Below are positions 3,775-61,011 of a stretch of DNA of 64,000 nucleotides, piece after piece. The notes beneath the pieces are model-generated. The model was given only the letters and a program-made list of their open reading frames with translations, ran no database searches and was not told the origin of the DNA. The DNA is taken from the NCBI RefSeq assembly GCF_054482525.1, contig NZ_CM137006.1; one strand, written 5' to 3'. Positions within the stretch are counted from its first letter, which is position 1. The number at the start of each line of letters is the position of its first letter. Both the position numbers and the translations under genes were made by a program.

Positions 3775-4200
3775 TCACTCCACCAGCAATAATTTATAAA
3801 GCGGTTGATTCTCTTCAACCAAATCGGCAAGCGTGTAGTTATCCAGTTCCGTAAGAAAACTTTGCACGGCCTTAGAAAGCGCCTGTTTCAACCGACAGGC
3901 AGGTGTAATGTGGCAAAACTCACTGCTGCAATTCACCAGCGATAAGGGCTCCAGCTCGCGCACCACATCACCAATACGTATCGCACTCGCCGGTTTACCC
4001 AGACGAATGCCGCCATTTTTTCCACGAACAGCAGTCACGTAGCCGGCACGACTAAGTTGATTGATTATTTTGACCATATGATTACGGGAGACGCCGTAGA
4101 CGTCAGTCACTTCAGAAATACTGGTCATCCGCCCTTCTGGCAATGACGCCATGTAGATCAGCGCACGTAATCCGTAATCAGTGAAACTCGTTAACTGCAC
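3775..4200 (-). CDS. nsrR: Nitric-oxide-sensitive Rrf2-family repressor NsrR
   Basis: 141-aa ORF with an Rrf2 winged-helix N-terminus and a cysteine cluster; position between purA and rnr. Confidence 0.92.
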
Positions 4201-4404
4201 ATCAACCTCAAAAGGGAAATCGGGAAAAAATACATTTATATTGATGATAAACCAGCCACAAGCTGTGTCGCTAATTTATTTCAGTTCGGGGAAGGAAAAA
4301 AGCGAGGATTTAACACTGTGTCGGATAGCGTAATGGCTTACCCGACACAGCAATGTATCACACTGTTAGCCCAGCAGGCAAAATATCTGCCAGGCGTACC
4401 AGAA

Positions 4405-5706
<1,302 letters not shown>

Positions 5707-6085: not shown

Positions 6086-7090
6086 TTAACGCGTTGCGGA
6101 AGTCGGCGTCTTCATGTAGCGGAAGAAATCGCTATCCGGGCTCATGACCATCACGTCCTGATTGCCAGAGAAGCTGTTCTCATAAGCACGCAGGCTACGG
6201 ATAAATGCGTAGAAGTCCGGATCTTTACTGAATGCATCAGCAAACAGTTTGGCTGCTTCTGCATCGCCTTCACCACGCATGATGCGGCCCTGACGCTCAG
6301 CTTCAGCCAGCGTTCTGGTCACTTCATAGTCGGCAGTCGCGCGCAGTTTTTCCGCTTCTTCCTGACCTTGTGAACGGTGACGACGCGCTACCGCTTCACG
6401 CTCGGCGCGCATACGGTTGTAGATCGCTTCAGACACTTCGGTCGGCAGGTTGATCTGCTTAATTCGCACATCGACAACTTCAATACCCAGCGCCGCCATA
6501 CTGTTCGGGTTGATGACCGGAACTTTGCCCTTCGTCTCAGCCGTTACGCGCTCTGCCGCTTCGGCAATGGCGTTATCTGCCGCCGGGGTAGTAACTTCAT
6601 CTTCTGTACCCGCAGAACCGGAGTTCAGCGCGTCACGTACTTCGAGGGTCAGACGACCACGGGAATCGGTGACGATGTCTTTCACGTCCAGACGACCAAT
6701 TTCAGAACGCAGACGGTCAGAGAACTTACGTTTCAACAGCACTTCCGCTTGCGAAATGTCGCCACCGCCCGTTGCCAGGTAGTAACGGCTGAAATCGCTG
6801 ATGCGCCATTTGATGTAAGAGTCGACGATCAGGTCTTTCTTCTCTTTGGTCACAAAGCGGTCGGCCTGGTTGTCCATGGTCTGAATACGTGCGTCGAGCA
6901 TTTTCACCGTTTCAATGAACGGTATCTTGAAATGCAGACCCGGCTCATAAACCAGAGGTTTGTTGTCATCGTCACGCAGTACCTTACCAAAACGCAGCGT
7001 AATACCGCGCTCACCTTCTTTGACGACAAAGACAGACATGTAAAGCACTACCAGCACGATGATGATAATCGCGATAACTGACTTACGCAT
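6086..7090 (-). CDS. hflC: FtsH protease modulator HflC
   Basis: 334-aa ORF, SPFH/band-7 protein with an N-terminal TM segment; immediately downstream of hflK. Confidence 0.95.
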   Translation of the reverse strand: MRKSVIAIIIIVLVVLYMSVFVVKEGERGITLRFGKVLRDDDNKPLVYEPGLHFKIPFIETVKMLDARIQTMDNQADRFVTKEKKDLIVDSYIKWRISDFSRYYLATGGGDISQAEVLLKRKFSDRLRSEIGRLDVKDIVTDSRGRLTLEVRDALNSGSAGTEDEVTTPAADNAIAEAAERVTAETKGKVPVINPNSMAALGIEVVDVRIKQINLPTEVSEAIYNRMRAEREAVARRHRSQGQEEAEKLRATADYEVTRTLAEAERQGRIMRGEGDAEAAKLFADAFSKDPDFYAFIRSLRAYENSFSGNQDVMVMSPDSDFFRYMKTPTSATR

Positions 7091-7092
7091 CG

Positions 7093-8352
7093 TTATTCCC
7101 CCTGACGCTGGTAGTCGTTACGCTGCGCGTTGGCGCGGCGTTGGTCCATAATATCGCCCTGACTGGTGGACGACGTGTTGCTTGCTCCACTGGTTGTGGT
7201 GGAAGAGGCTGGCGGCAGACGCAGCAGATTGCTGGCACCATTATCGCTCTTCGCCGCAGGGGCGTTACCACCTTTCAGCATCTGGTCTAACGGCAGAACC
7301 ATCAGGTTGCCACCTTTATCGTTAACCAGCACTTTGCGGGTGTTGCCCAACACTTTTTCCATCGTCTCGATATACAGACGCTCGCGAGTAATTTCCGGCG
7401 CGGCTTTATATTCCGGCAGAAGTTTAGCAAAGCGCGCCACTTCACCCTGAGCTTCCAGGATGGTCTGGGCCTTGTATGCACGCGCCTCTTCGAGGATACG
7501 TTGCGCCTGACCGTTCGCACGCGGCTGAACTTCGTTGGTATACGCTTCTGCTTCACGAATATATTGCTGTTCGTTTTCACGCGCGGCAATCGCATCGTCA
7601 AACGCCGCTTTTACTTCTTCCGGCGGACGAGCTGCCTGGAAGTTGACGTCCAGCAGCGTGATACCCATGTCATACGGACGAATCGTCTCTTCCAGTTCGC
7701 GCTGAGTATCGCTACGAATCACGGTACGACCTTCCGTCAGAATGCGGTCCATGGTGTATTTACCGATAACCCCACGCAGGGCGCTGTCGGTAGCCTGACG
7801 CAGGCTGTCATCCGGGCTGGTCACGCTATACAGATATTTTTCCGGATTGGTGACGCGGTACTGCACGTTCATCTCAACGCGCACTACGTTCTCGTCCGAC
7901 GTCAGCATCACACCAGAAGCGGCCAGTTCACGCACGGCTTCCACGTTCACCGGTTTGACTTCGTCGATAAACGTCGGTTTCCAGTTCAGACCCGGCTCAA
8001 CCAGATGGCTGAATTTACCAAAGCGTGTTACCACGCCACGTTCGGCTTCTTTAATGGTATAGAAACCACTGGCCGCCCAGATAATGACAATCGCTGCCGC
8101 TGCGATGGTAACGACACGACCGCCAAGCTGCGGGCGCGGGCCTTGCGATGAACTGCCACCGCCAGATCCGGTGCCTTTACTGCCGCCCAGACCACCGAGC
8201 TTTTTGCTCAGTTTGCGGAAGATATCATCTAAATCAGGTGGCCCTTGATCGCGACCGCCTTTGTTTCCATTTCCCTCAGAGTTGCCGCCAGGTTTGCTGC
8301 TTCCCCACGGGTCGCGGTCTTGTCCGTTATTACCGGGCTGATTCCACGCCAT
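7093..8352 (-). CDS. hflK: FtsH protease modulator HflK
   Basis: 419-aa ORF with a Gly-rich N-terminus and SPFH domain. Confidence 0.95.
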   Translation of the reverse strand: MAWNQPGNNGQDRDPWGSSKPGGNSEGNGNKGGRDQGPPDLDDIFRKLSKKLGGLGGSKGTGSGGGSSSQGPRPQLGGRVVTIAAAAIVIIWAASGFYTIKEAERGVVTRFGKFSHLVEPGLNWKPTFIDEVKPVNVEAVRELAASGVMLTSDENVVRVEMNVQYRVTNPEKYLYSVTSPDDSLRQATDSALRGVIGKYTMDRILTEGRTVIRSDTQRELEETIRPYDMGITLLDVNFQAARPPEEVKAAFDDAIAARENEQQYIREAEAYTNEVQPRANGQAQRILEEARAYKAQTILEAQGEVARFAKLLPEYKAAPEITRERLYIETMEKVLGNTRKVLVNDKGGNLMVLPLDQMLKGGNAPAAKSDNGASNLLRLPPASSTTTSGASNTSSTSQGDIMDQRRANAQRNDYQRQGE

Positions 8353-8437
8353 GTTTGTGCTCCATATTTGTTATGCGGTGATCCCTGTTGTCTTTCGACG
8401 CCAGAGGATATGACTCCACGCTTCAGACGCTACGCCG

Positions 8438-9718
8438 TTAGATCAGGTAATCGATCAACGCCGGTTCTTGTTTACAGAGGCGACGCCAGTCAACGATCGG
8501 CATACGAACTTGCAGACTTACGCTGCCGTCCTCCTCCATCCACTCTTTTTCTATTGCCTGAAGCTGATAAAAACGACTTCTCAGACGCCCTTCCTGCGGT
8601 GGCAGACGCAATGTATGCTGCGCCACCTCGCCGGAAAGCCGCTCCGTCAAAGCCTGAAAAAGCTGTGGTATCCCCGCTCCGGTCTGTGCGGAAAGCCAGA
8701 CACGGATCGGTTTGTTCTCTTCGTCCCGATCAATACGCGGTTCGAAATCTTCCAGCATATCGATCTTGTTCATCACCAGCAGGGTTGGGATCTCGTGAGC
8801 GTCGATCTCTTCAAGAACCGTATTCACCGCTTCGATGTTTTCTTGTACACGCACATCCGCCGCATCAATGACGTGCAGCAGCAATGTGGCTTGCCGCGTC
8901 TCTTGTAACGTGGCTTTAAATGCCGCCACCAGATCGTGCGGCAGGTGGCGAATAAACCCTACGGTATCTGCCAACACGGTTTCACCGACATCTGCGACGT
9001 CAATACGCCGCAACGTCGGGTCGAGGGTGGCAAACAACTGGTCTGCCGCGTAGACCCGCGCTTCGGTGATGCGATTGAAAAGGGTAGATTTACCGGCGTT
9101 GGTATATCCCACCAGCGAAACAGTAGGAACGTCGGCTTTGATACGCGATTGCCGCCCCTGCTCACGCTGCTTTTCAACTCTTTCCAGGCGCGACTGTATC
9201 TGCACGATGCGATTACGCAACAAACGACGGTCGGTTTCGAGCTGGGTTTCACCCGGACCACGCAAACCTATCCCGCCTTTCTGTCTTTCAAGGTGGGTCC
9301 AGCCACGCACCAGGCGCGTAGCCAGATGGCGCAGCTGCGCCAGCTCAACCTGCAACTTACCCTCATGGGTACGCGCACGTTGGGCGAAAATATCTAAAAT
9401 AAGGCCGGTGCGGTCGATGACACGACACTCGCACAAACGCTCCAGGTTACGCTCTTGCGCCGGGCTCAGGGCATGGTCAAAAAGAACGACCGAAGCACCC
9501 GTCGCTTTGACAGCTTCCGCAATTTCAACTGCTTTACCTTCACCTACAAAATACTTTGGGTGCGGCGCTTTACGGCTACCGGTAATCACCTGCAATGCTT
9601 CGACACCGGCGGAAGAGACCAGAGATTCAAACTCCTGGAGGTCTTCCATATCTTTGTCTTGCGTAAAATAGATGTGTACCAGTACCGCCTGCTCACCAGC
9701 ATCATAACGGTCAAACAA
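8438..9718 (-). CDS. hflX: Ribosome-associated GTPase HflX
   Basis: 426-aa ORF with G1 motif GYTNAGKST and DTVGF. Confidence 0.95.
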
Positions 9719-17732: not shown

Positions 17733-17808
<76 letters not shown>

Positions 17809-17843
17809 TTGGGTGGTCTGTGCTTTACAGCACTTTCAAATTT

Positions 17844-17919
<76 letters not shown>

Positions 17920-17954
17920 TTGGGTGGTCTGTGCTTTATAGCACTTTCAAATTT

Positions 17955-18030
<76 letters not shown>

Positions 18031-21018: not shown

Positions 21019-24000
21019 GTGCGCCTGATTATCACTTTTCTGATGGCCTGGTGCCTCAGTTGGGGGGCGTACGCCGCGACGGCCCCCGATAGCAAACAAA
21101 TCTCACAAGAACTGGAGCAGGCAAAAGCGGCGAAACCCGCGCAACCGGAAGTCGTAGAGGCGCTCCAGTCTGCCTTAAATGCGCTTGAGGAACGGAAAGG
21201 TTCCCTTGAGCGCATCAAGCAATATCAAGAAGTCATTGATAATTATCCGAAACTCTCCGCTACTCTGCGCGCGCAATTAAACAACATGCGTGACGAGCCG
21301 CGCAGCGTGTCACCGGGAATGTCTACCGACGCGCTGAATCAGGAAATTCTCCAGGTCAGCAGCCAGTTGCTGGATAAAAGCCGTCAGGCCCAGCAAGAGC
21401 AGGAACGCGCCCGCGAGATTGCCGATTCGCTGAATCAACTGCCGCAACAGCAAACCGATGCCCGCCGTCAGTTAAATGAAATCGAGCGCCGCCTGGGGAC
21501 GCTTACCGGCAATTCCCCGCTCAATCAGGCACAAAATTTCGCGTTGCAGTCTGACTCTGCACGTCTGAAAGCGCTCGTCGATGAACTGGAACTGGCGCAG
21601 CTGTCCGCCAATAACCGCCAGGAATTAGCGCGCTTGCGCTCAGAGCTGGCGGAAAAAGAGAGCCAGCAACTGGATGCGTATTTGCAGGCCTTACGTAATC
21701 AGTTGAATAGCCAACGTCAGCTTGAGGCGGAGCGGGCGCTGGAAAGTACCGAATTACTGGCAGAAAACAGTGCCGATTTGCCGAAAGATATCGTCGCGCA
21801 ATTCAAAATTAACCGCGAACTATCGGCAGCGCTGAATCAACAGGCGCAGCGGATGGATCTCGTTGCCTCGCAACAGCGTCAGGCTGCCAGCCAGACGTTA
21901 CAGGTCCGGCAGGCGTTGAATACGCTGCGTGAACAGTCGCAATGGCTGGGATCGTCCAATCTGCTCGGCGAAGCGTTGCGGGCGCAGGTGGCACGGCTGC
22001 CGGAAATGCCAAAACCACAACAGCTTGATACCGAAATGGCGCAGTTGCGTGTGCAACGGTTACGCTATGAGGATCTGCTTAATAAACAGCCGCAGCTAAG
22101 GCAAATTCATCAGGCCGACGGTCAGCCGCTGACCGCCGAGCAAAACCGTATTCTGGAAGCACAGCTACGCACTCAGCGTGAGTTGCTGAACTCATTGTTG
22201 CAGGGTGGAGACACGCTACTACTGGAACTGACCAAGCTGAAAGTCTCCAACGGACAACTGGAGGATGCGCTGAAAGAGGTGAATGAAGCGACGCACCGCT
22301 ATCTGTTCTGGACCTCTGACGTGCGCCCGATGACCATCGCCTGGCCGCTGGAAATCGCCCAGGATCTGCGTCGTCTCATTTCGCTGGACACCTTCAGTCA
22401 GTTGGGCAAAGCCAGTGTGATGATGCTGACCAGTAAAGAGACAATTTTACCGCTGTTTGGCGCGTTGATTCTGGTCGGTTGCAGTATTTACTCACGCCGC
22501 TATTTCACCCGTTTTCTTGAACGTTCGGCGGCGAAAGTCGGCAAAGTGACTCAGGATCACTTCTGGCTGACGTTACGCACTCTTTTCTGGTCGATTCTCG
22601 TCGCGTCACCGCTACCGGTGCTGTGGATGACGCTGGGTTACGGCTTGCGCGAGGCGTGGCCTTATCCGCTGGCGGTAGCGATTGGTGATGGCGTAACAGC
22701 CACCGTACCGCTGCTATGGGTAGTGATGATTTGCGCTACCTTTGCCCGCCCGAACGGCTTATTTATCGCTCATTTTGGCTGGCCGCGCGAACGGGTTTCC
22801 CGTGGGATGCGCTACTACCTGATGAGCATTGGGCTTATCGTGCCGCTGATTATGGCACTGATGATGTTCGATAATCTCGACGACCGCGAGTTTTCCGGTT
22901 CGCTGGGACGGCTTTGCTTTATCCTCATTTGCGGTGCGCTGGCGGTGGTCACTCTCAGTCTGAAAAAGGCCGGGATCCCGCTGTATCTCAACAAAGAAGG
23001 CAGCGGTGACAACATTACCAACCATATGCTGTGGAACATGATGATTGGCGCACCGCTGGTTGCCATTCTGGCGTCGGCGGTGGGTTATCTGGCAACGGCG
23101 CAGGCACTGTTAGCGAGGCTTGAAACCTCGGTTGCCATCTGGTTCCTGCTACTAGTGGTTTATCACGTTATCCGCCGCTGGATGCTGATCCAGCGCCGCA
23201 GGCTGGCGTTTGACCGGGCGAAGCATCGCCGGGCAGAGATGTTAGCGCAACGTGCGCGTGGCGAAGAGGAAGCTCATCATCACAGTAGCCCGGAAGGGGC
23301 AATTGAAGTCGATGAAAGCGAAGTCGATCTCGATGCCATCAGTGCGCAATCCTTGCGGCTGGTGCGCTCAATTTTGATGTTGATCGCCCTGCTTTCGGTC
23401 ATTGTGCTGTGGTCAGAAATCCATTCCGCTTTCGGCTTCCTCGAAAATATTTCGCTGTGGGATGTCACCTCCACGGTACAGGGCGTAGAAAGTCTGGAGC
23501 CGATTACCCTCGGTGCGGTGCTGATTGCCATTCTGGTGTTTATCATCACCACGCAGCTGGTGCGCAACCTGCCCGCGCTGCTGGAACTGGCGATTTTGCA
23601 GCACCTGGATTTAACGCCGGGTACAGGTTACGCCATCACCACCATCACCAAATATCTGCTGATGCTGATTGGCGGGCTGGTCGGCTTCTCAATGATTGGT
23701 ATTGAGTGGTCGAAATTGCAGTGGCTGGTCGCCGCACTCGGTGTTGGTCTCGGTTTTGGTCTGCAGGAAATTTTCGCCAACTTTATCTCTGGCCTGATCA
23801 TCCTGTTCGAAAAACCGATTCGCATTGGCGATACGGTGACGATCCGCGATCTCACCGGTAGTGTGACGAAAATTAACACCCGCGCCACCACCATCAGCGA
23901 CTGGGACCGCAAAGAAATTATCGTGCCGAACAAGGCGTTTATTACCGAGCAGTTTATCAACTGGTCGCTCTCTGACTCGGTCACGCGCGTGGTGTTGACG

Positions 24001-24342
24001 ATTCCGGCCCCTGCCGATGCCAACAGTGAAGAAGTGACGGAAATCCTGCTCACCGCAGCGCGTCGCTGCTCGCTGGTGATCGACAACCCGGCACCGGAAG
24101 TCTTCCTGGTGGATCTGCAACAGGGGATTCAGATTTTCGAGCTGCGTATTTACGCCGCTGAGATGGGTCACCGTATGCCGCTACGCCATGAGATCCACCA
24201 GCTGATTCTGGCTGGCTTCCACGCCCACGGTATCGATATGCCATTCCCGCCCTTCCAGATGCGTCTGGAAAGCCTCAACGGTAAACAAACGGGGAGAACG
24301 CTGACGTCTGCGGGCAAAGGTCGTCAGGCGGGAAGTTTGTAA
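21019..24342 (+). CDS. mscM: Miniconductance mechanosensitive channel MscM (YjeP)
   Basis: 1107-aa ORF with GTG start; signal peptide, long coiled-coil periplasmic domain, multiple TM helices and a C-terminal MscS-like domain. Confidence 0.93.
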   Translation: MRLIITFLMAWCLSWGAYAATAPDSKQISQELEQAKAAKPAQPEVVEALQSALNALEERKGSLERIKQYQEVIDNYPKLSATLRAQLNNMRDEPRSVSPGMSTDALNQEILQVSSQLLDKSRQAQQEQERAREIADSLNQLPQQQTDARRQLNEIERRLGTLTGNSPLNQAQNFALQSDSARLKALVDELELAQLSANNRQELARLRSELAEKESQQLDAYLQALRNQLNSQRQLEAERALESTELLAENSADLPKDIVAQFKINRELSAALNQQAQRMDLVASQQRQAASQTLQVRQALNTLREQSQWLGSSNLLGEALRAQVARLPEMPKPQQLDTEMAQLRVQRLRYEDLLNKQPQLRQIHQADGQPLTAEQNRILEAQLRTQRELLNSLLQGGDTLLLELTKLKVSNGQLEDALKEVNEATHRYLFWTSDVRPMTIAWPLEIAQDLRRLISLDTFSQLGKASVMMLTSKETILPLFGALILVGCSIYSRRYFTRFLERSAAKVGKVTQDHFWLTLRTLFWSILVASPLPVLWMTLGYGLREAWPYPLAVAIGDGVTATVPLLWVVMICATFARPNGLFIAHFGWPRERVSRGMRYYLMSIGLIVPLIMALMMFDNLDDREFSGSLGRLCFILICGALAVVTLSLKKAGIPLYLNKEGSGDNITNHMLWNMMIGAPLVAILASAVGYLATAQALLARLETSVAIWFLLLVVYHVIRRWMLIQRRRLAFDRAKHRRAEMLAQRARGEEEAHHHSSPEGAIEVDESEVDLDAISAQSLRLVRSILMLIALLSVIVLWSEIHSAFGFLENISLWDVTSTVQGVESLEPITLGAVLIAILVFIITTQLVRNLPALLELAILQHLDLTPGTGYAITTITKYLLMLIGGLVGFSMIGIEWSKLQWLVAALGVGLGFGLQEIFANFISGLIILFEKPIRIGDTVTIRDLTGSVTKINTRATTISDWDRKEIIVPNKAFITEQFINWSLSDSVTRVVLTIPAPADANSEEVTEILLTAARRCSLVIDNPAPEVFLVDLQQGIQIFELRIYAAEMGHRMPLRHEIHQLILAGFHAHGIDMPFPPFQMRLESLNGKQTGRTLTSAGKGRQAGSL

Positions 24343-24492
24343 TGCATGAAGCTGCCAAATGATGTCAACGTGGCTCATTTAGCAGCTTAACATCATCTTC
24401 AGTTATCACCGGCCCTGGAGAGTATCATCCATACGCATTACTTCCTGACAACTCATCGCCGGAGAGACGATGAGTTGCAGGATTTCATATGA

Positions 24493-25995
24493 TCAGTCGA
24501 GAGCTAACTCAGGTTTGTTCGCCATGCGACTGCAATAGTTCTGGTAAATCGCCATCGCTAACAGCGAGAAGAAGACAGGGCCGCCAATCATCCACAATGT
24601 GCTGTCCCAGTCTCCGGCTTCAACCACAGGCTGAATAATGGTGAAGACGTTCGCAAATGTCACCACCAGAACGACAACCACCGTCGCAATCATTGCCGAC
24701 ATACGCGTTTTGAAAATCACAAACGGTCTGTCGAGATCCTGACGTGCTTTAAAGAATGGGAAAGCCAGCGCGAGGAACAAGTAAGGAAGCGTCATAGACA
24801 CGTTCGCCATCAGCGTCAGCTTGTTAAAGAACGCCGATGCGGTACCGCCACCAAACGAAACCAGAAGAATGAAGATAGTAACCAACCCGCACTGCATCCA
24901 CATGGCGATAGACGGCATCCCCATCGCATTCAGGCGCGTCATCGGTTCCGGCCACAACGCTTTCGGCGTCCCCTGGATGATGGCTTTCAGCGGTGAATAG
25001 CAAAGCGTAAAGAACGCACCGGTATAAGCGAGGAACATCGAAAGTCCGGTAATACGCGCAAACCATACGCCCAGCGACAATGACGCTTCAGGTGACAAAT
25101 GCAGTGCGTTACCCAGCGTCACCCCGAGGCTCTTCATCAGCACATAGGTAATATTGCCGAGGTTAACGGAACCATTACTTAATACCTGCTGCCAGTTTGT
25201 GCTGACGCCCCATAAAAATATTGCCAGCGAATAACCGATTGAAATAACAATAGCGGCAAAAACAATACCTTTGGCAAAGTTCTTTTCTGGATTTTCCGTT
25301 TTATCGACCAGACCACCAACCGCTTCAATTCCGCCATAGGCAAAAATAGCAAATACCACAAACGATAGCATTGCCAGACCGGACTGATAACCTGGGTTCG
25401 GTGATGCAAGGAAATTAATATCCTGCGCGAAATGCCCACCATTTAATAACAAAATAGTAATGCTTACTAACAGCAATACTAAATTCAGACACATTACTGC
25501 AATACCGCCCACCGCAGTAATGCGGGCAATTTTATTAATCCCCTTTGAAGCAACGACGGTGACCAGAATCATCCATGCCACTGCCAGCAGACCAACCACC
25601 TGCGTAGGCTCCAGTCCGGTAATACGCCAGTGCTGGGTCATGTCGCTACCGTAGAGGAATGTTGAGAACGGTACCCAAACTTTAGCGGAGGTGCTCACCA
25701 TCCAGATGATATAAGAGGAAAACCACATAAACGTACCAATGAAGGCAAAACGTGGTCCGACACTATTATTCATCCAGGAATAGATACCGCCTTCTTCTTT
25801 GCGATACGCAGCGCCCATTTCAGCCATCATTAAGGCGAATGGAATAAAGAATAACAATGCAGAAAATATATAAAAGGGAATCGCGCTATAACCCATTAAG
25901 TAATAAGCCGATGGGCTATTGGCAAATCCAAATACGGAAGTAAAGATCATCAATATGAGTCCTATCAGACTCATCTTTTTTATCGTGTGAGGCAT
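24493..25995 (-). CDS. yjeM: APC-family amino-acid transporter YjeM
   Basis: 514-aa polytopic membrane ORF; start placed at MPHTIKKMSLIGLIL for 500 aa. Confidence 0.85.
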   Translation of the reverse strand: MPHTIKKMSLIGLILMIFTSVFGFANSPSAYYLMGYSAIPFYIFSALLFFIPFALMMAEMGAAYRKEEGGIYSWMNNSVGPRFAFIGTFMWFSSYIIWMVSTSAKVWVPFSTFLYGSDMTQHWRITGLEPTQVVGLLAVAWMILVTVVASKGINKIARITAVGGIAVMCLNLVLLLVSITILLLNGGHFAQDINFLASPNPGYQSGLAMLSFVVFAIFAYGGIEAVGGLVDKTENPEKNFAKGIVFAAIVISIGYSLAIFLWGVSTNWQQVLSNGSVNLGNITYVLMKSLGVTLGNALHLSPEASLSLGVWFARITGLSMFLAYTGAFFTLCYSPLKAIIQGTPKALWPEPMTRLNAMGMPSIAMWMQCGLVTIFILLVSFGGGTASAFFNKLTLMANVSMTLPYLFLALAFPFFKARQDLDRPFVIFKTRMSAMIATVVVVLVVTFANVFTIIQPVVEAGDWDSTLWMIGGPVFFSLLAMAIYQNYCSRMANKPELALD

Positions 25996-35437: not shown

Positions 35438-36307
35438 ATGGCCATAAGCATCAAGGGTGTTAATACCGGTGTTATTCGCAAGAGTAATAATTTCATTGCA
35501 CTGGCGCTGAAAATTAAAGAGCCTCGCAATAAAGAATCGTTGTTCTTTCTGTCTGTCATGGAACTGCGCGACCTTCTGATTGCGCTGGAAAGCCGTTTGC
35601 ATCAAAAGCATAAACTGGATGCTGCTGCACGCCTTCAGTATGAGCAAGCTCGCGATAAAGTCATTAAGAAAATGGCAGAAAACATCCCAGAAATTCTGGT
35701 TGATGAGCTTAAAAATGCCGATATTAATCGTCGGGTTAACACGCTGGAACTTACCGATAATCAGGGCGAAAATCTTACCTTCATATTAACACTACATGAC
35801 GGTAGCAAATGTGAGTTAGTCATCAATGAATTACAGATTGAAATGCTGGCGCGAGCAATCATTCATGCAATTAATAATGCGGAAATGCGTGAACTGGCAT
35901 TACGTATTACTTCACTGTTAGATTTCCTGCCGTTATACGACGTTGACTGCCAGGACAATGGCAATCTGGAATATGACACCTATTCCCAACCGGAATGGAA
36001 ACATAATTTGTTCAACCATTATCTGGCGGTGCTTTACCGCTTTAAAGATGAAAGTGGCAAAGAACAATTTAGCGGCGCAGTGGTGAAAACGCGTGAAGCA
36101 ACGCCGGGTAAAGAAGTGGAGGCGATCACTCGCCGAATGCTTGATTTCAGCCCACGACTGAAAAAACTCGCGGGTGTACCATGTCAAGTCTATGTTCGCA
36201 CCGTAGCGGCAAATAACGCCCAACCGTTAACCCAGGATCAATGCTTACGCGCGCTACATCACTTACGTGTTCAATCCACCAGCAAAACTGCACCACAGGC
36301 GAAATAA
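35438..36307 (+). CDS. yjeJ: Uncharacterised protein YjeJ
   Basis: 289-aa ORF after an AT-rich intergenic region, at the position of yjeJ in K-12. Confidence 0.75.
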   Translation: MAISIKGVNTGVIRKSNNFIALALKIKEPRNKESLFFLSVMELRDLLIALESRLHQKHKLDAAARLQYEQARDKVIKKMAENIPEILVDELKNADINRRVNTLELTDNQGENLTFILTLHDGSKCELVINELQIEMLARAIIHAINNAEMRELALRITSLLDFLPLYDVDCQDNGNLEYDTYSQPEWKHNLFNHYLAVLYRFKDESGKEQFSGAVVKTREATPGKEVEAITRRMLDFSPRLKKLAGVPCQVYVRTVAANNAQPLTQDQCLRALHHLRVQSTSKTAPQAK

Positions 36308-46782: not shown

Positions 46783-46888
46783 CAGAAACACAGAAAAGAA
46801 GCGATTTGCCGCAATCTTAAGCAGTTGAATCGCTTTTACTGAAATTAGGTTGACGAGATGTGCAGATTACGGTTTAATGCGCCCCGTT

Positions 46889-46964
46889 GCCCGGATAGCT
46901 CAGTCGGTAGAGCAGGGGATTGAAAATCCCCGTGTCCTTGGTTCGATTCCGAGTCCGGGCACCA
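46889..46964 (+). tRNA. pheU: tRNA-Phe (anticodon GAA)
   Basis: 76 nt GCCCGGATAGCTCAGTCGGTAGAGCAGGGGATTGAAAATCCCCGTGTCCTTGGTTCGATTCCGAGTCCGGGCACCA; copy name assumed from position after yjdC. Confidence 0.96.
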
Positions 46965-46973
46965 AATTCATAT

Positions 46974-47001
46974 AAACGGACCTCCACGGAGGTCCGTTTT
47001 T
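46974..47001 (+). terminator. Rho-independent terminator downstream of tRNA-Phe
   Basis: Hairpin aaacggacctccacggaggtccgttttt with a trailing T-run. Confidence 0.85.
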
Positions 47002-47161
47002 CGTTTCAGAACGCCACGATTTAAGCGTTCTGCCTACAAATCAATTCTACCGAACTCAACCAGATTCCCCCCACATCAACCCCATTGTGTGGGTATAATT
47101 GCGGGTATACCCCAGTTCGACAGAATTTGTACCCTCTTTAACGCATTCAGAAGGCTGAACT

Positions 47162-48427
47162 ATGGCACTGACTGACGCAAAAATCCGGGCTGCAAAGCCC
47201 ACTGACAAGGCTTATAAACTCACTGACGGGGCTGGCATGTTCCTGCTGGTACATCCTAATGGTTCCCGTTACTGGCGTCTCCGTTATCGTATTCTGGGTA
47301 AGGAGAAGACTCTGGCACTTGGTGTGTATCCAGAAGTTTCTCTCTCCGAAGCTCGTACAAAACGGGATGAGGCCCGAAAACTGATTTCGGAGGGGATTGA
47401 CCCTTGCGAACAGAAAAGAGCTAAAAAAGTAGTCCCTGATTTACAGCTCTCTTTTGAACATATTGCACGACGCTGGCATGCCAGTAATAAACAATGGGCA
47501 CAATCACACAGCGATAAAGTACTCAAAAGCCTCGAAACACACGTTTTCCCCTTTATCGGCAACCGGGATATCACAACACTCAATACCCCGGATCTGCTTA
47601 TCCCTGTTCGTGCTGCAGAAGCTAAACAAATTTATGAAATCGCCAGTCGTCTGCAGCAAAGAATATCTGCCGTAATGCGTTATGCCGTACAGTCTGGCAT
47701 CATCAGATATAATCCTGCTCTGGATATGGCTGGCGCATTGACTACGGTACAACGCCAGCATCGCCCCGCTCTTGATCTTTCACGTCTGCCTGAACTTCTG
47801 TCGCGTATTAACAGTTATAAAGGTCAGCCTGTCACCCGGCTTGCCGTTATGCTGAATTTACTGGTTTTTATTCGTTCCAGTGAACTCAGATACGCCCGCT
47901 GGTCTGAAATTGATATTGACAATGCCATGTGGACTATTCCAGCCGAACGCAAACCTCTGCCAGGGGTAAAATTCTCACACCGGGGCTCCAAGATGCGAAC
48001 ACCACATCTTGTGCCACTCAGCAAACAGGCTGTAGCCATACTGACAGAACTTCAGACATGGGCTGGTGAAAATGGTCTGATCTTTACGGGAGCACATGAC
48101 CCGCGTAAACCAATCAGTGAAAATACCGTAAATAAGGCCCTCAGAGTGATGGGGTATGACACAACCAAGGAAGTCTGTGGCCATGGATTCCGGGCGATGG
48201 CGTGCAGTGCATTGATTGAATCCGGCTTATGGTCAAGAGATGCGGTTGAACGTCAGATGAGTCATCAGGAGCGCAACGGAGTACGTGCCGCGTATATTCA
48301 TAAAGCAGAACATCTGGAAGAACGTCGGCTTATGCTGCAATGGTGGGCAGATTTTCTGGATGCAAACAGGGAGGAGTGTATCAGTCCGTTTGAATATGCA
48401 AAAGTTAACAATCCACTGAAAAGGTGA
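47162..48427 (+). CDS. int: P4-family tyrosine recombinase (phage-type integrase)
   Basis: 421-aa ORF MALTDAKIRAAKPTDKAYKLTDGAGMFLLVHPNGSRYWRLRYR (typical P4-Int N-terminus); C-terminal catalytic region with HxxR and the conserved tyrosine region. Confidence 0.92.
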   Translation: MALTDAKIRAAKPTDKAYKLTDGAGMFLLVHPNGSRYWRLRYRILGKEKTLALGVYPEVSLSEARTKRDEARKLISEGIDPCEQKRAKKVVPDLQLSFEHIARRWHASNKQWAQSHSDKVLKSLETHVFPFIGNRDITTLNTPDLLIPVRAAEAKQIYEIASRLQQRISAVMRYAVQSGIIRYNPALDMAGALTTVQRQHRPALDLSRLPELLSRINSYKGQPVTRLAVMLNLLVFIRSSELRYARWSEIDIDNAMWTIPAERKPLPGVKFSHRGSKMRTPHLVPLSKQAVAILTELQTWAGENGLIFTGAHDPRKPISENTVNKALRVMGYDTTKEVCGHGFRAMACSALIESGLWSRDAVERQMSHQERNGVRAAYIHKAEHLEERRLMLQWWADFLDANREECISPFEYAKVNNPLKR

Positions 48428-48652
48428 CTGAACGCCATTTACACACATGCTCTTCCTCTTAAGGGGAAGAGCACCCGCCTCAATCAATTTCTTTTTTATG
48501 CCGGCGGAACCATCAGCCAGGCTGAGGTTCTCATTCAATAACTCAACGTCTTACCACAGAACAGAATTCACTGTATTATCATGGGCAACGTTAATCCCGG
48601 ACAATAAAAGGACACCGATGCCAGGCATCACAATTTTTATAGCCTGCAGATT

Positions 48653-49726
48653 ATGGTCCATCCTTTTTTACAGGTTCAGAATATGACTGGCAAATTACGC
48701 TTTGAAGTGAACGATAACCAGGGCTGTTTCATATTTTCGGAAACCTGGTTTGGCTCGTTGCTGGATGAGTTTGAAGAACTGATTGATGCATACGATGCGG
48801 ATGAAATCAGCGAAACAAGTTACATCAACAAACTCAGGCGCCTTGCCCGACAGGAGAATGACTTTATTGATGTACACGCTCACTTGGCATACGTATTTCT
48901 GGAGCAGAATGCCCCGCGTAAGGCGCTGAATGCTGCCCTTAAAGGGCTGGCAGTTGGCAATCGTCTTATCCCTGAAGGTTTCAGTGGCAGAATCATCTGG
49001 ATACATCCTGACAACCGACCTTTTCTTCGTGCCCTCTATGCGGCAATCCTGGCAAATGCACATTTACGGCGTCATCAGGATGCCATCATGCTCATTGAAA
49101 AAATACTGGATTACAATCCCGAAGATAATCATGGTGCACGCTGGCTACTGGGACCGGAACTGTTACGCACTGGCGCTCATGAACAGGCACGCCATATACT
49201 GCAGGAACATGCAGATGAATTTTCACCTTACTGGTATGAACTCGGCCTTCTGCATTTTCTTAATGGGGAACTGGTAAAAGCTGCAACTGCATTTCGTCGC
49301 GGCTTTGCGGCAAATACTTACATCGCAGAAATACTGTGCGGAAATCTGCATCCATTTCCACTTGCTGTATGGCATAACTTTTCAGGCGGTCCGGATACTG
49401 CCGAAGATTATTATGCCACATACCACCCGTTATGGGGGCAATATCCGGAAGCATTGCTGTTTGTAAACTGGCTCTATAATCATTCCTCTGTGCTGCATGA
49501 ACGGGCAGAAATCATTAAATGCGCCGAAATGCTGATGCAGGAAGATGATTTCGAAATATGCGAAAGTATTTTAAGACAGCAGGAGAAGTTGCGTGAAAGA
49601 ATTGATGAGACGCTTTCTGAGAAAATTGTACAGAAATGCAGAAATATGAATGGTGAATATGTCTGGCCCTGGATATTGCCGTTTTCAGCGGCAGGCATGA
49701 AACATACTGGCATACAGTATCAGTAG
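48653..49726 (+). CDS. Hypothetical protein, helical/TPR-like repeats, function unknown
   Basis: 357-aa ORF (alternative start 48683 MTGKLRFEV); TPR-like helical repeat segments (for example WYELGLLHFLNGELVKAATAFRRGF); no catalytic motif recognised. Confidence 0.6.
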   Translation: MVHPFLQVQNMTGKLRFEVNDNQGCFIFSETWFGSLLDEFEELIDAYDADEISETSYINKLRRLARQENDFIDVHAHLAYVFLEQNAPRKALNAALKGLAVGNRLIPEGFSGRIIWIHPDNRPFLRALYAAILANAHLRRHQDAIMLIEKILDYNPEDNHGARWLLGPELLRTGAHEQARHILQEHADEFSPYWYELGLLHFLNGELVKAATAFRRGFAANTYIAEILCGNLHPFPLAVWHNFSGGPDTAEDYYATYHPLWGQYPEALLFVNWLYNHSSVLHERAEIIKCAEMLMQEDDFEICESILRQQEKLRERIDETLSEKIVQKCRNMNGEYVWPWILPFSAAGMKHTGIQYQ

Positions 49727-49797
49727 ATATTGCATTAGTGTATCCTGCACACAAGTAATAATTTATCCACCAATAATAACACTGTTAATGTCCCCTT

Positions 49798-49840
49798 CCC
49801 CTGGTTGTCAGCCAGGGGTTATCTTCTGAATATTTCTTTT
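49798..49840 (+). terminator. Putative intrinsic terminator after the 357-aa ORF
   Basis: Hairpin cccctgg-ttgtcag-ccagggg followed by a T-rich tract (ttatcttctgaatatttctttt). Confidence 0.55.
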
Positions 49841-50085
49841 GAAAAGGATAACACAGTAAATTATTTTTATGAATTATCCCATGGACTCATTAACACCCTT
49901 TCATAATGCTTTATTGTCAAACACGTTATGGCTGACATCAAAAAAAACCGGATTTCCTCTGCCAGCGGGTAATCACCTCCCCGGTGTTTTCGGTTGGTCT
50001 GGTTACTCCTGTCTGGTTATGAGCAAGATAATTGCTATAAACAGTGGAAAACTCATCGTACATAATCTGGTGATGAACATTACGC

Positions 50086-51588
50086 TTATTTTCCCTTGAC
50101 CGGAAGAATCAGAGGCTGCGGTTTCAGACTGTCTGCCGGTACATTCCTCTCTCCGTTAAAAACCATAACGGGTTCATTATCTTCGTCTGTCAGCAGATTG
50201 AATGGCGGTATATTTTCAGTACGAATGCCGGTCAGCCACTGAAAAATACCTGCGAAATGACGGGCACTGATTTTTCTGCTGACGGACTGATGAGACGTGA
50301 TGTCACTGGCGGTAATAATCAGGGGAACGCTGTAGCCTCCCTGCACATGACCATCATGATGAACAGGATTAGCACTGTCGCTGACCGACAGACCATGGTC
50401 AGAAAAGTAAAGCATGGCAAAATGACGGGAATGCCGGCGAAGGATACCATCAAGCTGCCCGAGAAAGTTATCCAGTTTACTGATGCTGGCGAGGTAACAG
50501 GCAATCTTCCGGGGGAACTGCTCCTGGTAATTATTCGGCCAGGAGTGAAGCCGGTCACACGGGTTCGGATGAGACCCCATCATGTGCAGGAATATCACCT
50601 TCGGAGAGGATTTATCCGCCAGCGCACGTTCTGTTTCCTGTAACAACAACATGTCATCCGTTTTACGGGAAGCGAAGCTGCCTTTCTTGAGGAAAACGGT
50701 ATGCTCCGCATCAGAAGCAATAACAGAGATGCGTGTGTCATGCTCTCCCAGTTTTCCCTGATTGGATATCCACCATGTGCTGTATCCTGCTTTTGCTGCC
50801 AGCGCCACCACGTTGTTGCCGGAATCAGGGTTCTGCTCATAGTCATAAATCAGTGTCCGGCTCAGGGAAGGCACAGTACTGGCTGCTGCCGATGTATAGC
50901 CGTCAATAAATAAACCGGGAGCAGTATTCAGCCACGGTGTGGTTGGCACGGGATAGCCATATACCGACATATAATCCCTGCGCACACTCTCACCAGTGAC
51001 GATAACAATCGTGTCATACAACGGTACACCCGGCAGGATTTTCCAGTTGTCAGCCCCGTGCTGATTCAGTTGTTTATAACGCTGCATTTCACGCAATGTG
51101 TCAGTTGTCCCCACAACAGTTCCTTTAACCATCCGCAACGGCCAGCTGTTTACTGAGCATAATACGAACAGCAGCAGTGCCAGCCAGTTACGGTGACCAC
51201 GGCGGTGTGTTCGCCAGAAAATCACCATGAATACCTGAATCGCGGCACTGACCAGAAAATGATAAACAGGAATCATCCCGGTAAACTCCGCTGCCTCATC
51301 AGTTGTGGTCTGCAGCAACGCGACAATAAAACTGTTGTTGATTTTACCGTACGTCATACCGGCAGGCGCATACAGTGCACAACAGAACAGAAATAACAGC
51401 GCTGTAATGGATGTGAGGGTATTTCTGTGTGCAAGGAGCAGAAGAAGGAACAGCAGCAACACATTCCCGGTGGCATTCTTCTCAGTGTATCCGCATGCAA
51501 TTGTGGTTATTGCAGAAACGACAAAAAAGAATAAAAACAATAAAATCCGGGGGGTGTTACCCGGACAAAACAGTTTTCTGATATTCAT
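50086..51588 (-). CDS. Phosphoethanolamine-transferase-like membrane enzyme (sulfatase/alkaline-phosphatase superfamily, EptA/OpgE-like)
   Basis: 500-aa ORF; N-terminal multi-TM region, then a soluble domain with transferase-like motifs (TGESVRRDYMSVYGY and HMMGSHPNP); AT-rich. Confidence 0.7.
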   Translation of the reverse strand: MNIRKLFCPGNTPRILLFLFFFVVSAITTIACGYTEKNATGNVLLLFLLLLLAHRNTLTSITALLFLFCCALYAPAGMTYGKINNSFIVALLQTTTDEAAEFTGMIPVYHFLVSAAIQVFMVIFWRTHRRGHRNWLALLLFVLCSVNSWPLRMVKGTVVGTTDTLREMQRYKQLNQHGADNWKILPGVPLYDTIVIVTGESVRRDYMSVYGYPVPTTPWLNTAPGLFIDGYTSAAASTVPSLSRTLIYDYEQNPDSGNNVVALAAKAGYSTWWISNQGKLGEHDTRISVIASDAEHTVFLKKGSFASRKTDDMLLLQETERALADKSSPKVIFLHMMGSHPNPCDRLHSWPNNYQEQFPRKIACYLASISKLDNFLGQLDGILRRHSRHFAMLYFSDHGLSVSDSANPVHHDGHVQGGYSVPLIITASDITSHQSVSRKISARHFAGIFQWLTGIRTENIPPFNLLTDEDNEPVMVFNGERNVPADSLKPQPLILPVKGK

Positions 51589-51647
51589 CGGAGTATATCG
51601 ACAACATTATTATGAAGAGAACAGGATAATAAAAATCAGAAATTATC

Positions 51648-51692
51648 TGTAAAACAGATAAAAGACAACCCTGCAGTAATAGACTGCAGGGT
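51648..51692 (-). terminator. Putative intrinsic terminator after the outer-membrane protein gene
   Basis: Perfect hairpin accctgcag-taataga-ctgcagggt with a T-run following it on the minus strand. Confidence 0.6.
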
Positions 51693-51769
51693 ATTTCTGT
51701 TTAATTGCAGAAGATATGCAATTATCTTAATTACAGAATATACGCAATTATCGTTCAGGAGCAGTGTCG

Positions 51770-52510
51770 TCAGAAGTTATAAGTCATACCAAGCATGATG
51801 TCATGACTTTTAACATCAACTTCTGACTTATATTTATCGCCCCACTCGTCCTTGTAACTCACACTGCTGTCACCTGCATCAAGATAGCGATAGCTGAGGT
51901 CCAGAGCGATATCCGGGGTTACGTCATAGCGGACACCCGCGCCAAGGCTCCATGCGAAGTTGTCAGCAGAGCCTGAACGTGACAACGATTCGCGACCACT
52001 GCTTCCGTACTCATAATCCCAGGTACTGATACCGGTTGTTTTCTGGTGAATTCTGGCGTAGCCAATCCCTGCGGATACCCATGGTGTGAATGCGCTGTCA
52101 TTCCGGAAGTCATAGTACGCATTCAGCATTAGTGTGTTGACTGACACCTCATTCTTCAGGTCATCACGCCAGTAACCACCTGACCAGCTGTCTTTATCTA
52201 CGTTATACTTCGAATCAGCTTTTCCACGAGCGTAAAACTCCAGTTCTGTTCGAACCGGAATACTGAACTGCGGATAAAAATCATAACCAGCCGCGATACC
52301 ACCACTGAATACCGTATCATGGTCATCGCCGCCTTTATACTTTGACGTTTCTTCCTCATCTCCTGACAGGAAATGCTGGTCTGAAAGTGACACCACAGAG
52401 GTACCGGCTTTACCGGTCAGATAAAAACCGCTTTTACCTTCCTCAGCACCTGCATTTGCTGCAAATACACAGGCTGTGGCCACCACTGAAACAGCAAAAA
52501 CCTTTTTCAT
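51770..52510 (-). CDS. Outer-membrane beta-barrel protein of the Hek/Hra/Tia (opacity-adhesin/invasin-like) family
   Basis: ORF 51770..52525; start MKKVFAVSVVATACVFAANAGA (signal peptide); alternating amphipathic beta-strand pattern; C-terminal barrel signature ending in Phe (LGMTYNF). Confidence 0.65.
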   Translation of the reverse strand: MKKVFAVSVVATACVFAANAGAEEGKSGFYLTGKAGTSVVSLSDQHFLSGDEEETSKYKGGDDHDTVFSGGIAAGYDFYPQFSIPVRTELEFYARGKADSKYNVDKDSWSGGYWRDDLKNEVSVNTLMLNAYYDFRNDSAFTPWVSAGIGYARIHQKTTGISTWDYEYGSSGRESLSRSGSADNFAWSLGAGVRYDVTPDIALDLSYRYLDAGDSSVSYKDEWGDKYKSEVDVKSHDIMLGMTYNF

Positions 52511-52727
52511 TTCAATTATCTCCATTATTGTATCATCATTTTAATATATATTTTTAATATTTAAAAACCGGACTAAAGGCAGCCTCAACACTCCACACTA
52601 CGGAAGCCAGACTTTTACTCTACACAAAATAAATATATCTTCTCAGTGAGGACGTGAACGCCTGTCTGAAATTATGTGAATACAACCTCCCCAGAATACA
52701 AACAGGCAGGGGCACTGGAGTAACCGA

Positions 52728-53096
52728 TCACAATACTTCTGCCTTTTTATATTTTACCGATAATCTCCGTTTAATATAGTTCTTACCGATTTCATAATCG
52801 GGGTTCCATGTAGATAAATTATGAACACCTATTGCTACTGCACTCGCCACTCCCAGAATTACGGTTGGTGACCATAAAGAACCAGCTAAAGCTGTACTCC
52901 TGTACTCAGTATATACACGACAACTTAATTTCGTTTTCTCTATTTCATGCTCCACTCTTTTTACCGTTTCACTAACATCGGAAACATTTTCGATCACAAA
53001 ACTCTTACGTTCATAAATAAGCTTGCTTAATGTATTTATATCTAAAAATTTCGCATCAAAAGAATCAATCTGTACTGTTTTTTCTTGTGCTGACAT
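52728..53096 (-). CDS. Hypothetical protein with a single C-terminal TM helix
   Basis: 122-aa ORF in an AT-rich segment; hydrophobic stretch ALAGSLWSPTVILGVASAVAIGV; no recognisable domain. Confidence 0.45.
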   Translation of the reverse strand: MSAQEKTVQIDSFDAKFLDINTLSKLIYERKSFVIENVSDVSETVKRVEHEIEKTKLSCRVYTEYRSTALAGSLWSPTVILGVASAVAIGVHNLSTWNPDYEIGKNYIKRRLSVKYKKAEVL

Positions 53097-54404
53097 CTTC
53101 TTTTCCTGGCTGGTATGGCAAGTGACGGAGACAAGAGAAACGTTTTAAGCTCAGTTATCTCCGCCATCACTTTCCACGAATGACAAGTAATTTTGCCTAT
53201 TTTAAAACCATGCAAAAGGCAGGGTAAAAGGAGAAAATTCGATCGAATCGATCGACAAAATCGATCATACATGATGAAGATTTTTTATCGAATCCATAAA
53301 AATAGTGACAGCTAACCGGCGTTGCAGGAACAGTCAGAAATGGGCGTTTGGGAAAGAGCCATAGCACTACGTCGTCGCTGACATAGAGGAACTGTGCTTT
53401 GTTGATAAGATCCTTTATACGGCAACCAATCCACTGGACAAAAGATGAACTACGTAATCACCGGGTTCTCACTGACGAAATACAGAAGTTAATGACACAA
53501 CTGTGCCATGTACCTTGTACAACAGCGGTGGAAAGCTCTCAGAACAATGGAATTGCAGAAAGGTGTTAAAACGATGAAAGCCTTCATACCCAAATCGAAT
53601 GTAAGAACGGCAGTAAAGACTGAATTGCGTAACCTTGCATTAGCTCGAGTATTACACTGCATAGTGTGCAGGGTTATCTCCCATCGAGAAAATATCGGCG
53701 CCAGCGAATAACGTCACCTTAGATGTAGCAGTTGCCAAATAGTGACTCAAGGGCGGGCTTACCGCATACACTGACACTTAGCGGATCGACAGAATATTAT
53801 TAGCAGATCATCCCTGAACGCAACGTAATTATCGTAATAAAGGCTTTTTCTGGCTACCAGGAAGATCTGACATGGCTCTGCTCTGGAACCAGGCCGCAGG
53901 AAGCATCAATCTGGAGTTTATCAGCTACTGGAATTCCGGTGTATTGGCAGCCCCTGATAATCACCTGACCCACGAAGAGCGCTCTGCTTTGCAGAAACTC
54001 TGGGGCGGTTTGGAGACAGGAGATGCCATTTAACGATTATAGGACGTTCTGATGAAGTCCATGATTTTACCTCCGCCTTAATTAACTGTTTTCTTTCTGA
54101 AGAAGAGATTGTCTGGTGGCAATCAGGTGGCATTTTCCCGGATCCCTGGCCCGCTAATATATCCCGGCTGAACTGACGATTAACGCGATATTGCAAATAT
54201 GGCATCTGAATCGATCATGATTTGGCGGCATCCATCTCCGTTCACAGTTTGGCATGCTTCCGATCATTGATTGGCATCCAGCCAGTCACTCCGGGAATTA
54301 ACTCTTTTCACCGCAGTCTCCATTGCCGTGTTTAAACCAATGGAGACGTCAATGTCCAAAAAGAGAATATCCAGGAGCACTATGGATACCTGTTTTAAGA
54401 TCCT

Positions 54405-54623
54405 TCAGCTCAAGTTCGACCAGAAGCTGGCTAACCGTTGTATCGGACTTGCAAAACACCAATGGGGATTGATCTCTATTTTGCGACACAGACGCATTAT
54501 CAATACATCGATGGTGCGATCAAATACCTCAGTGCTCTCACCGTGGATCAAATCCAGCAATTGCTCACAGATTAAGACTCGTCGGGAGTTTTGAGCCAAC
54601 GCCAGCAGTAAACCCATATTCAC
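54405..54623 (-). pseudogene. Fragment of a winged-helix (OmpR/ToxR-type) DNA-binding domain; probably a gene remnant
   Basis: 72-aa ORF containing ...EQLLDLIHGESTEVFDRTIDVLIMRLCRKIEINP, matching the recognition-helix and wing pattern of OmpR-family output domains; no receiver domain or full-length ORF around it. Confidence 0.4.
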
Positions 54624-54954
54624 CTTGAGTGAAATCTACAGGCTGTTGATGAGCATCAACCAGCACGTAACGGTCCGGGATCAAGTGTCCAGCCGTTAAA
54701 AAAACCACTCTACTACCCTGCTCGACCTAAGCCTCGGCGTTCAGCCGCCTGAACGGGTATGGCAAGGGTGAAAAGAAACAGCATCCCCAAAGTACCGACC
54801 AGACGACAGGATGATGCTGGAACAGAAAGCATACGCACCTCCCTTAGAATTAGACAGTGCGTACAGGATACGTAAGACAGGGTGACGGGGCGGCGATAAA
54901 CCCCGAACACATGGCAGAGTGTGACCACCGGATAATGCGCTCTGAGTTTCCCGA

Positions 54955-55269
<315 letters not shown>

Positions 55270-55285
55270 TTATGTTGTGGTGAGA

Positions 55286-55328
<43 letters not shown>

Positions 55329-55329
55329 A

Positions 55330-55700
55330 AACGACATTCGTGCCGGATGCACTGGAGCAGGCAGTATGGGCCGTCGTCCATCTGGCACCATCCATCACAG
55401 TAATAAAGGTTCTCAGTATGTATCGCTGGCCTACATGCAGCGACTTAAGGAAGCCGGATTACTGGTATCAACAGGGAGTCCTGGCGACTCGTATGACAAC
55501 GCGATGGAGGAGAGCATCAATGGTCTTTACAAAACGGAGGTAATACACCGTAAGAGCTGGAAAAAACCGGACAGAAGTGAAACTGGCCACACTAACGTGG
55601 GTGGACTGGTATAACAATCGACGATTACTGGAAAGGCTGGGCCATATTCCTCCGACAGAAACAGAAAAAGCTTATTATGCCTCCATCGGAAACAATGATC
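55330..55700 (+). pseudogene. IS3-family transposase orfB C-terminal fragment (frameshifted), opposite orientation to the orfA remnant
   Basis: Translation HHSNKGSQYVSLAYMQRLKEAGLLVSTGSPGDSYDNAMEESINGLYKTE, then in another frame LTWVDWYNNRRLLERLGHIPPTETEKAYYAS; DDE integrase-core C-terminus. Confidence 0.7.
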
Positions 55701-60450: not shown

Positions 60451-60471
60451 CTGTTTTCCTCTGTGTTATAT

Positions 60472-60999: not shown

Positions 61000-61011
61000 T
61001 TCCCTGCCTCT

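Follow-up and report, generated by a model that had tools for sequence, protein, structure and literature searches.

Escherichia coli K-12 carries two small genes, yjeN and yjeO, between the convergent genes mscM and yjeM, and the corresponding interval in the window (the whole 64-kb stretch of DNA that was analysed) is short and free of genes. This difference raises three questions: whether the short interval is peculiar to this strain, whether it arose by loss of the two genes or represents a site that never held them, and what a strain without them would lack.

Anatomy of the mscM-yjeM junction

Gene coordinates were taken from the list of open reading frames (ORFs) and from the RefSeq annotation of E. 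coli PCN033, the nearest complete genome. With the mscM stop at 24342 and the end of yjeM at 24493, the convergent stops were exactly 150 bp apart, close to the roughly 150 bp given in the original prediction. The junction and its flanks contained the following features:

21019–24342, + strand: mscM (miniconductance mechanosensitive channel), 1107 aa, left flank (ORF list; PCN033 annotation; tblastn 100%)
24343–24492: mscM-yjeM intergenic junction, 150 bp, no gene; probable deletion scar of a yjeN-yjeO cassette
24349–24388, + strand: imperfect hairpin directly 3′ of the mscM stop, with arms at 24349–24362 and 24375–24388
24393–24395: probable deletion junction, TCA, found in the ML35-type haplotype both in the yjeO stop-codon region and at approximately yjeN codon 14
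24396–24432, − strand: remnant of the yjeN 5′ end (alignments to yjeN)
24433–24492, − strand: spacer between yjeM and yjeN in its original form, including AGGAAG, the Shine-Dalgarno sequence of yjeN
24493–25995, − strand: yjeM (amino-acid transporter family), 500 aa, right flank; UTI89/E. albertii-type allele (PCN033 annotation; alignments)

In MG1655 the gene order was yjeM (b4156), yjeN (b4157, 315 bp), yjeO (b4158, 315 bp) and the convergent mscM (b4159), in line with the original prediction. The yjeM-mscM interval of MG1655 measured 705 bp, with yjeO overlapping yjeN by 4 bp. The two loci shared the flanking genes and their orientation, and the yjeN 5′ end and the yjeM-yjeN spacer hairpin were recognisable in both. 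They differed in length and in content: MG1655 has two intact 104-codon genes with overlapping stop and start codons and a REP-like hairpin (GCCGGATGAACCAATCCGGC) after mscM, whereas the window has 150 bp without genes and an E. albertii-type hairpin in that position. The suspicion that this strain is without yjeN and yjeO was thus borne out by alignment and by a six-frame tblastn search of the 64-kb window with the K-12 proteins, which found no YjeN or YjeO homologue (best E-value 0.46).

The sole coding remainder of either gene in the window was an eight-codon yjeN stub. Its start codon (24432–24430) was followed by approximately 12 codons carrying a 1-bp deletion, which brought an in-frame stop at 24408–24406 after codon 8 (MDDTLQGR*). 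The Shine-Dalgarno sequence and start codon of yjeN were still intact. The segment 24393–24502 (bases 61–170 of a 170-base query), made up of the stub, the yjeN-yjeM spacer and the final 10 bases of yjeM, aligned to the yjeN 5′ end and spacer of UTI89-type yjeN strains at 85–86% identity (E 2e-23). A MAFFT alignment allowed the left 50 bp of the junction to be read as further yjeN sequence, extending with an internal deletion to approximately codon 40; this reading was rejected in favour of the hairpin of E. albertii and ML35, which was simpler and a better match.

The end of yjeM also differed from K-12. Seven positions of the last 10 YjeM residues were changed (...MANKPELALD* in the window, ...VAKNPQWAVE* in K-12), and from these C-terminal differences (window 24493–24540) the variable segment extends approximately 45 bp into yjeM. 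The K-12 type of YjeM end resembled that of Citrobacter, and the window type was common to UTI89 and E. albertii.

Positions 1–47097 of the window were 99.9–100% identical to PCN033, a close relative and not the same record, and a stretch of 1,150 bp was 100% identical to it. Three other differences between the two genomes were seen. Three tandem tRNA-Gly(GCC) genes (glyVXY type) at 17733–18030 corresponded to two in PCN033, a copy-number difference between close relatives. The yjeJ gene (approximately 35538–35546) was uninterrupted in the window and was split in PCN033 by IS1B with a 9-bp target duplication. PCN033 diverged from the window at approximately 47097, downstream of tRNA-Phe (46889–46964), where the window continued into an island (46889–64000 region) with an integrase, S/F1C fimbrial genes (sfaF/focD, focH), a phosphoethanolamine transferase and hypothetical genes. 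Coverage of at least 80% of a query spanning 46800–64000 was reached in only 46 of 5,426 E. coli genomes, and the best full-length matches downstream of tRNA-Phe were to E. coli strains 998 and TUM13773.

Hairpins in the junction

Two hairpins were present in the short interval. The arms of the left one, which correspond to the imperfect inverted repeat predicted earlier for this interval, were 14 nt long and 93% complementary. The right hairpin had perfect arms at 24449–24458 and 24468–24477 within an extended stem (approximately 24445–24481, −27 kcal/mol) lying directly after the yjeM stop. Folding of either strand gave z-scores of −4.8 and −4.9, and none of 200 shuffled sequences was equally stable.

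The base of the left hairpin and the bases preceding it (TGCATGAAGCTGCC...AGCAGCTT in the window) matched a hairpin, TGCGTGAAGCTGCC...GGCAGCTTC, that E. albertii and E. coli ML35 carry after mscM. The E. albertii-type hairpin was found after mscM in three E. coli genomes, of which ML35 is one, and the top of the window hairpin was approximately 13 nt longer than its E. albertii/ML35 counterpart. This extension gave only chance-level blastn-short matches against all of the fetched loci and the rest of the window. At the matching position, K-12, UTI89 and Citrobacter carried a REP-like hairpin; no match to the REP/BIME core (GCC[G/T]GATG type) was present in 24343–24492.

A hairpin followed yjeM in both haplotype families, with different stems (CAACTCATCG/CGATGAGTTG in the window and CCCTATCGTC/GACGATAGGG in K-12) and similar stability (−27 and −25 kcal/mol, respectively). 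The changes between the window hairpin (24445–24481) and that of the K-12 locus looked compensatory. Similar stability despite different stem sequences hints that structure, not sequence, has been kept, and so suggests that an RNA structure is conserved where yjeM ends. No covariance model of Rfam 15 matched 24000–24800 at E ≤ 1.

Neither hairpin fitted the intrinsic-terminator consensus. The sequence 3′ of either stem was mixed and contained no U-tract, no rho-independent terminator-like site was found on either strand of 24200–24650, and the terminator and promoter scan of the junction returned a single weak promoter-like site. The role of the hairpins is therefore a guess: most likely they would shape the 3′ ends of the two convergent transcripts, those of mscM and yjeM, either by stabilising them or by acting as non-canonical terminators. 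Beyond these 3′-end hairpins the junction most likely has no other function.

Distribution and origin of the short allele

The frequency of the short junction was measured in 5,426 complete E. coli genomes, a genome being counted when it matched at least 80% of the 170-nt junction query. The short junction was present in 2,394 genomes (about 44%) and yjeN/yjeO DNA of any extent in 3,030 (56%). These classes sum to 5,424 and are therefore essentially complementary. Of the 5,426 genomes, 2,153 had both yjeN and yjeO. In approximately 830 (about 15%; e.g., strain 4/1-1) the DNA was mostly yjeO, yjeN being reduced to its 3′ tip, and 45 (approximately 1%; e.g., strain GF3-3) had a 237-aa gene with a YjeO-family gene at the mscM-yjeM site. 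Carriers of the short allele included O157:H7, O55:H7, BL21/B, Nissle 1917 and ATCC 25922; carriers of the full-length allele included K-12, O111:H8 and UTI89. A junction-specific stretch of 65 nt (24336–24400) was at least 99% identical in 2,381 of the 2,394 short-junction genomes and was found in no other of the 5,426.

With the identical short junction in 2,394 genomes, the absence of yjeN and yjeO is not peculiar to the window strain. Since the short form slightly outnumbered that of K-12, the gene order of K-12 is not the norm for the species at this site. The suggestion that the two genes might be specific to K-12 was wrong: their DNA occurred in the 3,030 E. coli genomes counted above and also in E. 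albertii. The absence is an ordinary strain-to-strain difference, an accessory-gene polymorphism of an already-known kind.

A gene-free junction could also be an artefact of a collapsed repeat in the assembly or of small ORFs left uncalled, and annotation pipelines do often miss small ORFs. However, the six-frame search detected no YjeN or YjeO coding potential in the window, and the same 150-bp sequence was present in 2,394 independently finished genomes, which leaves this explanation with virtually no probability.

The best available progenitor model is the haplotype of E. coli ML35 and E. albertii NBRC 107761. It shared with the window the sequence after the mscM stop (TGC[G/A]TGAAGCTGCC...GCAGCTT), the 3′ end of yjeM and the hairpin in the spacer. 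It differed in its full length of 728 bp, its intact yjeN and yjeO-family genes and its shorter hairpin loop. Relative to ML35, the window was missing a 588-bp segment that begins at the yjeO stop codon and extends into yjeN as far as approximately codon 14. This segment is bordered on either side by the triplet TCA, of which a single copy was left in the window at 24393–24395. No full-length haplotype was found that combined the extended hairpin top, the K-12-like mscM 3′ end and the UTI89-like yjeM 3′ end, so the direct progenitor is one that we infer and did not observe. Another deletion derivative of the yjeN-yjeO cassette existed at the same site, namely the yjeO-only allele of strain 4/1-1; it differed from the window allele in having an internal deletion of approximately 270 bp that removed most of yjeN and kept yjeO, in its other breakpoints and in its haplotype background.

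The short junction might instead be the ancestral empty site, into which yjeN and yjeO were inserted later in K-12 and its relatives. Many Enterobacterales do have mscM adjoining epmA or yjeM without a cassette, and the mscM-yjeM site is a clear hot spot that takes different cassettes. An empty site would not be expected, however, to hold the yjeN start codon, its Shine-Dalgarno sequence and approximately 12 of its codons, as the window does, and chance similarity is an unlikely source of a stub matched at E 2e-23. The empty sites of Citrobacter and other genera carried unrelated REP-like hairpins and no yjeN stub. The genes themselves were widespread: E. albertii, the outgroup, had yjeN and yjeO at the mscM-yjeM site, Salmonella had yjeN, and 56% of E. 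coli genomes had yjeN/yjeO DNA. An ancestral empty site is accordingly extremely unlikely. The yjeN stub, the ML35-type hairpin and the outgroup comparison together argue that the short allele is a derived deletion.

Whether such a deletion occurred once or many times was judged from six short alleles (window, Nissle, B-LamR, VE-T9, WP8-S18 and HS-02). When aligned, all six had the same breakpoints and the same extended hairpin, alongside differing mscM 3′ polymorphisms and slight differences within the yjeN stub. Repeated independent deletions across E. coli lineages, for example at a recombination hot spot, would account for carriers as diverse as O157:H7, B/BL21, Nissle 1917, ATCC 25922 and PCN033-like strains, which are assigned here to different phylogroups by strain name and not by a computed tree. 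The yjeO-only allele of strain 4/1-1 likewise points to a deletion-prone locus. Recurrence is nonetheless very unlikely: the breakpoints, the extended hairpin and the region of the 1-bp frameshift were common to six of six alleles, the junction-specific 65-mer was at least 99% identical in 2,381 of 2,394 genomes, and the unique hairpin extension of approximately 13 nt would not be expected to arise independently more than once. Identical breakpoints in unrelated strains instead indicate a single origin.

The junction is thus very probably a derived deletion allele of the yjeN-yjeO cassette that arose once and was then spread by descent and recombination, the recombinational part of this reading depending on the presumed phylogroups of the carriers. 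In outline, the ancestor of E. coli and E. albertii would have had a yjeN-yjeO cassette between yjeM and mscM. A single event, either illegitimate recombination or slippage during replication from one TCA triplet to another, would then have removed 588 bp, although a microhomology of 3 bp is short enough to arise by chance. What remained would have been the mscM-side hairpin, a frameshifted yjeN stub with its ribosome-binding site, the spacer hairpin and the intact flanking genes. The short allele would subsequently have spread in E. coli by descent and homologous recombination, coexisting with the full-length and yjeO-only alleles, while the yjeN stub underwent neutral decay.

The junction itself is of little importance, being one of many accessory-gene polymorphisms of E. 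coli and visible in RefSeq annotation. The site could be used as a clean three-state marker (short, yjeO-only, and yjeN with yjeO).

The mscM site in Enterobacterales and a candidate role for YjeO

The published record of the two genes consisted of incidental mentions in the literature searched. A mastitis pan-genome study placed yjeO among the accessory genes and found it associated with the ability to grow in milk (PMC11390585). A σE-overexpression data set treated yjeN-yjeO as an operon and reported yjeO up 2.6-fold (PMC2731931). A further study counted yjeN among the K-12 genes without literature, and both yjeN and yjeO among the K-12 genes of no known function (PMC9976479).

Across 80 Enterobacterales species compared, the commonest arrangement was mscM directly convergent with epmA; yjeM was present in Escherichia, Citrobacter and some Enterobacter. 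An optional two-gene cassette occupied the space between mscM and yjeM (or epmA). In Escherichia this cassette encoded YjeN and YjeO. In Citrobacter, Enterobacter, Kosakonia, Pseudocitrobacter, Cronobacter and the 45 E. coli genomes noted above, it encoded a protein of approximately 235 aa and a YjeO-family protein. E. coli GF3-3 had an expanded site (locus 6530–9350), namely: yjeN, a frameshifted yjeO, an IS630-family pseudogene, the 237-aa toxin-like gene and a second YjeO-family gene; the products of the last two are WP_001061059.1 and WP_171284582.1. In Salmonella enterica a YjeN homologue (called as 125 aa, 68–69% identical) lay between yjeM and mscM, with no yjeO called. All four combinations of presence and absence therefore exist: K-12 has both genes, strain 4/1-1 yjeO alone, Salmonella yjeN alone, and the window neither.

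YjeN was confined to Escherichia and Salmonella and had no match in Pfam, NCBIfam or PADLOC. Its AF2 model (pLDDT 63) gave nothing below E = 2 in a Foldseek search of the PDB, with vague winged-helix-like matches only, and no similarity was found between YjeN and the 237-aa toxin-like protein.

The YjeO family is DUF2645 (PF10840). The sequences contained three hydrophobic stretches. Between the first two of these lies a loop (residues approximately 26–55) in which C41, D50, D51 and R53 were invariant, as was C103 at the C-terminus. In our reading, this pattern fits a first loop exposed to the periplasm and possibly tied by a disulfide bond.

The partner family of approximately 235 aa comprised 161 close homologues and, by exhaustive profile search, 376 representative proteins. 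The protein of approximately 235 aa had no Pfam match even at E ≤ 10 and none in NCBIfam or PADLOC, and none of these three databases lists it or DUF2645 as a toxin or an immunity protein. A DUF2645 gene lay immediately 3′ of the gene of approximately 235 aa in every context examined. The survey of cassettes at the mscM site contributed Citrobacter, Enterobacter, Kosakonia and Pseudocitrobacter; further contexts came from Pectobacterium, Xenorhabdus, Yersinia, Cronobacter, Paramixta, Photorhabdus, Brenneria and Rouxiella, together with a PAAR fusion.

Several of these contexts connected the pair to delivery systems. In Brenneria the order was hcp, a 234-aa gene and DUF2645, all in the same direction and with a 12-bp gap after hcp. 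An orphan hcp adjoined the pair in Pectobacterium and Xenorhabdus, and a CdiI_2 immunity gene was located 3′ of the pair in Paramixta. Longer proteins carried the domain of approximately 235 aa C-terminally or internally, joined to other recognisable domains: an N-terminal PAAR motif in one protein (P0183), whose gene was followed by an overlapping DUF2645 gene; eCIS_core in four proteins; and peptidoglycan-binding domains in two, one of which (P0312) also had Pesticin-lysozyme and TseH domains. At the mscM site itself, no link to type VI secretion system (T6SS) delivery genes (hcp, vgrG, PAAR) was present. In Yersinia enterocolitica (locus 4001–5013) the pair was carried as cargo among P2-like prophage or tailocin tail and baseplate genes (gpR, gpS, gpV spike, gpW and gpJ).

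The toxin-like domain may be SLT-like, although none of the hints was significant. Three UniRef names in the family read "Transglycosylase SLT domain-containing", and the conserved E..., SVGSxAIQ and RYNRG motifs resemble, to our eyes, those of SLT proteins. The AF2 model was poor (pLDDT 54), and its top Foldseek matches were MltC, MltE and MltF, all at E > 1. Neither a Pfam match to SLT (PF01464) nor a significant sequence match in the PDB supported an SLT fold.

Taken as a whole, this gene context is the signature of a putative polymorphic toxin domain paired with a putative immunity protein. Since DUF2645 was directly 3′ of the toxin-like domain in all contexts examined, and that domain in some cases adjoined hcp or was fused to PAAR or eCIS_core, yjeO may be an orphan immunity gene against a type VI secretion toxin. 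The pairs have the usual layout of T6SS effector-immunity modules, a candidate toxin gene followed by a candidate immunity gene, as recognised here from gene context, and the presence of yjeO in most E. coli without the toxin gene resembles the situation of orphan immunity genes. The resemblance to effector-immunity modules does not extend to the gene upstream of yjeO in E. coli, which encodes YjeN, a protein unrelated to the toxin-like one. K-12 YjeO shared only 46–56% identity with those members of its family that have a toxin-like partner. No paper mentioning DUF2645 or PF10840 was found in the library searched, and a search there on type VI secretion and orphan immunity returned nothing relevant. 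We tentatively propose, judging from genomic context, that YjeO could be a membrane immunity protein against the toxin of approximately 235 aa, which would probably be directed at the cell wall and delivered by a T6SS or an eCIS; the window strain would then have lost an orphan immunity gene.

This side result could matter more than the junction that led to it, as gene context gives yjeO a testable role. If the proposal is true, mscM-yjeM would be a site at which E. coli strains differ in their protection against attack by Citrobacter, Enterobacter, Cronobacter and those E. coli, approximately 1%, in which this same site holds the toxin gene. The susceptible strains would be those with the short allele, 44% of the species.
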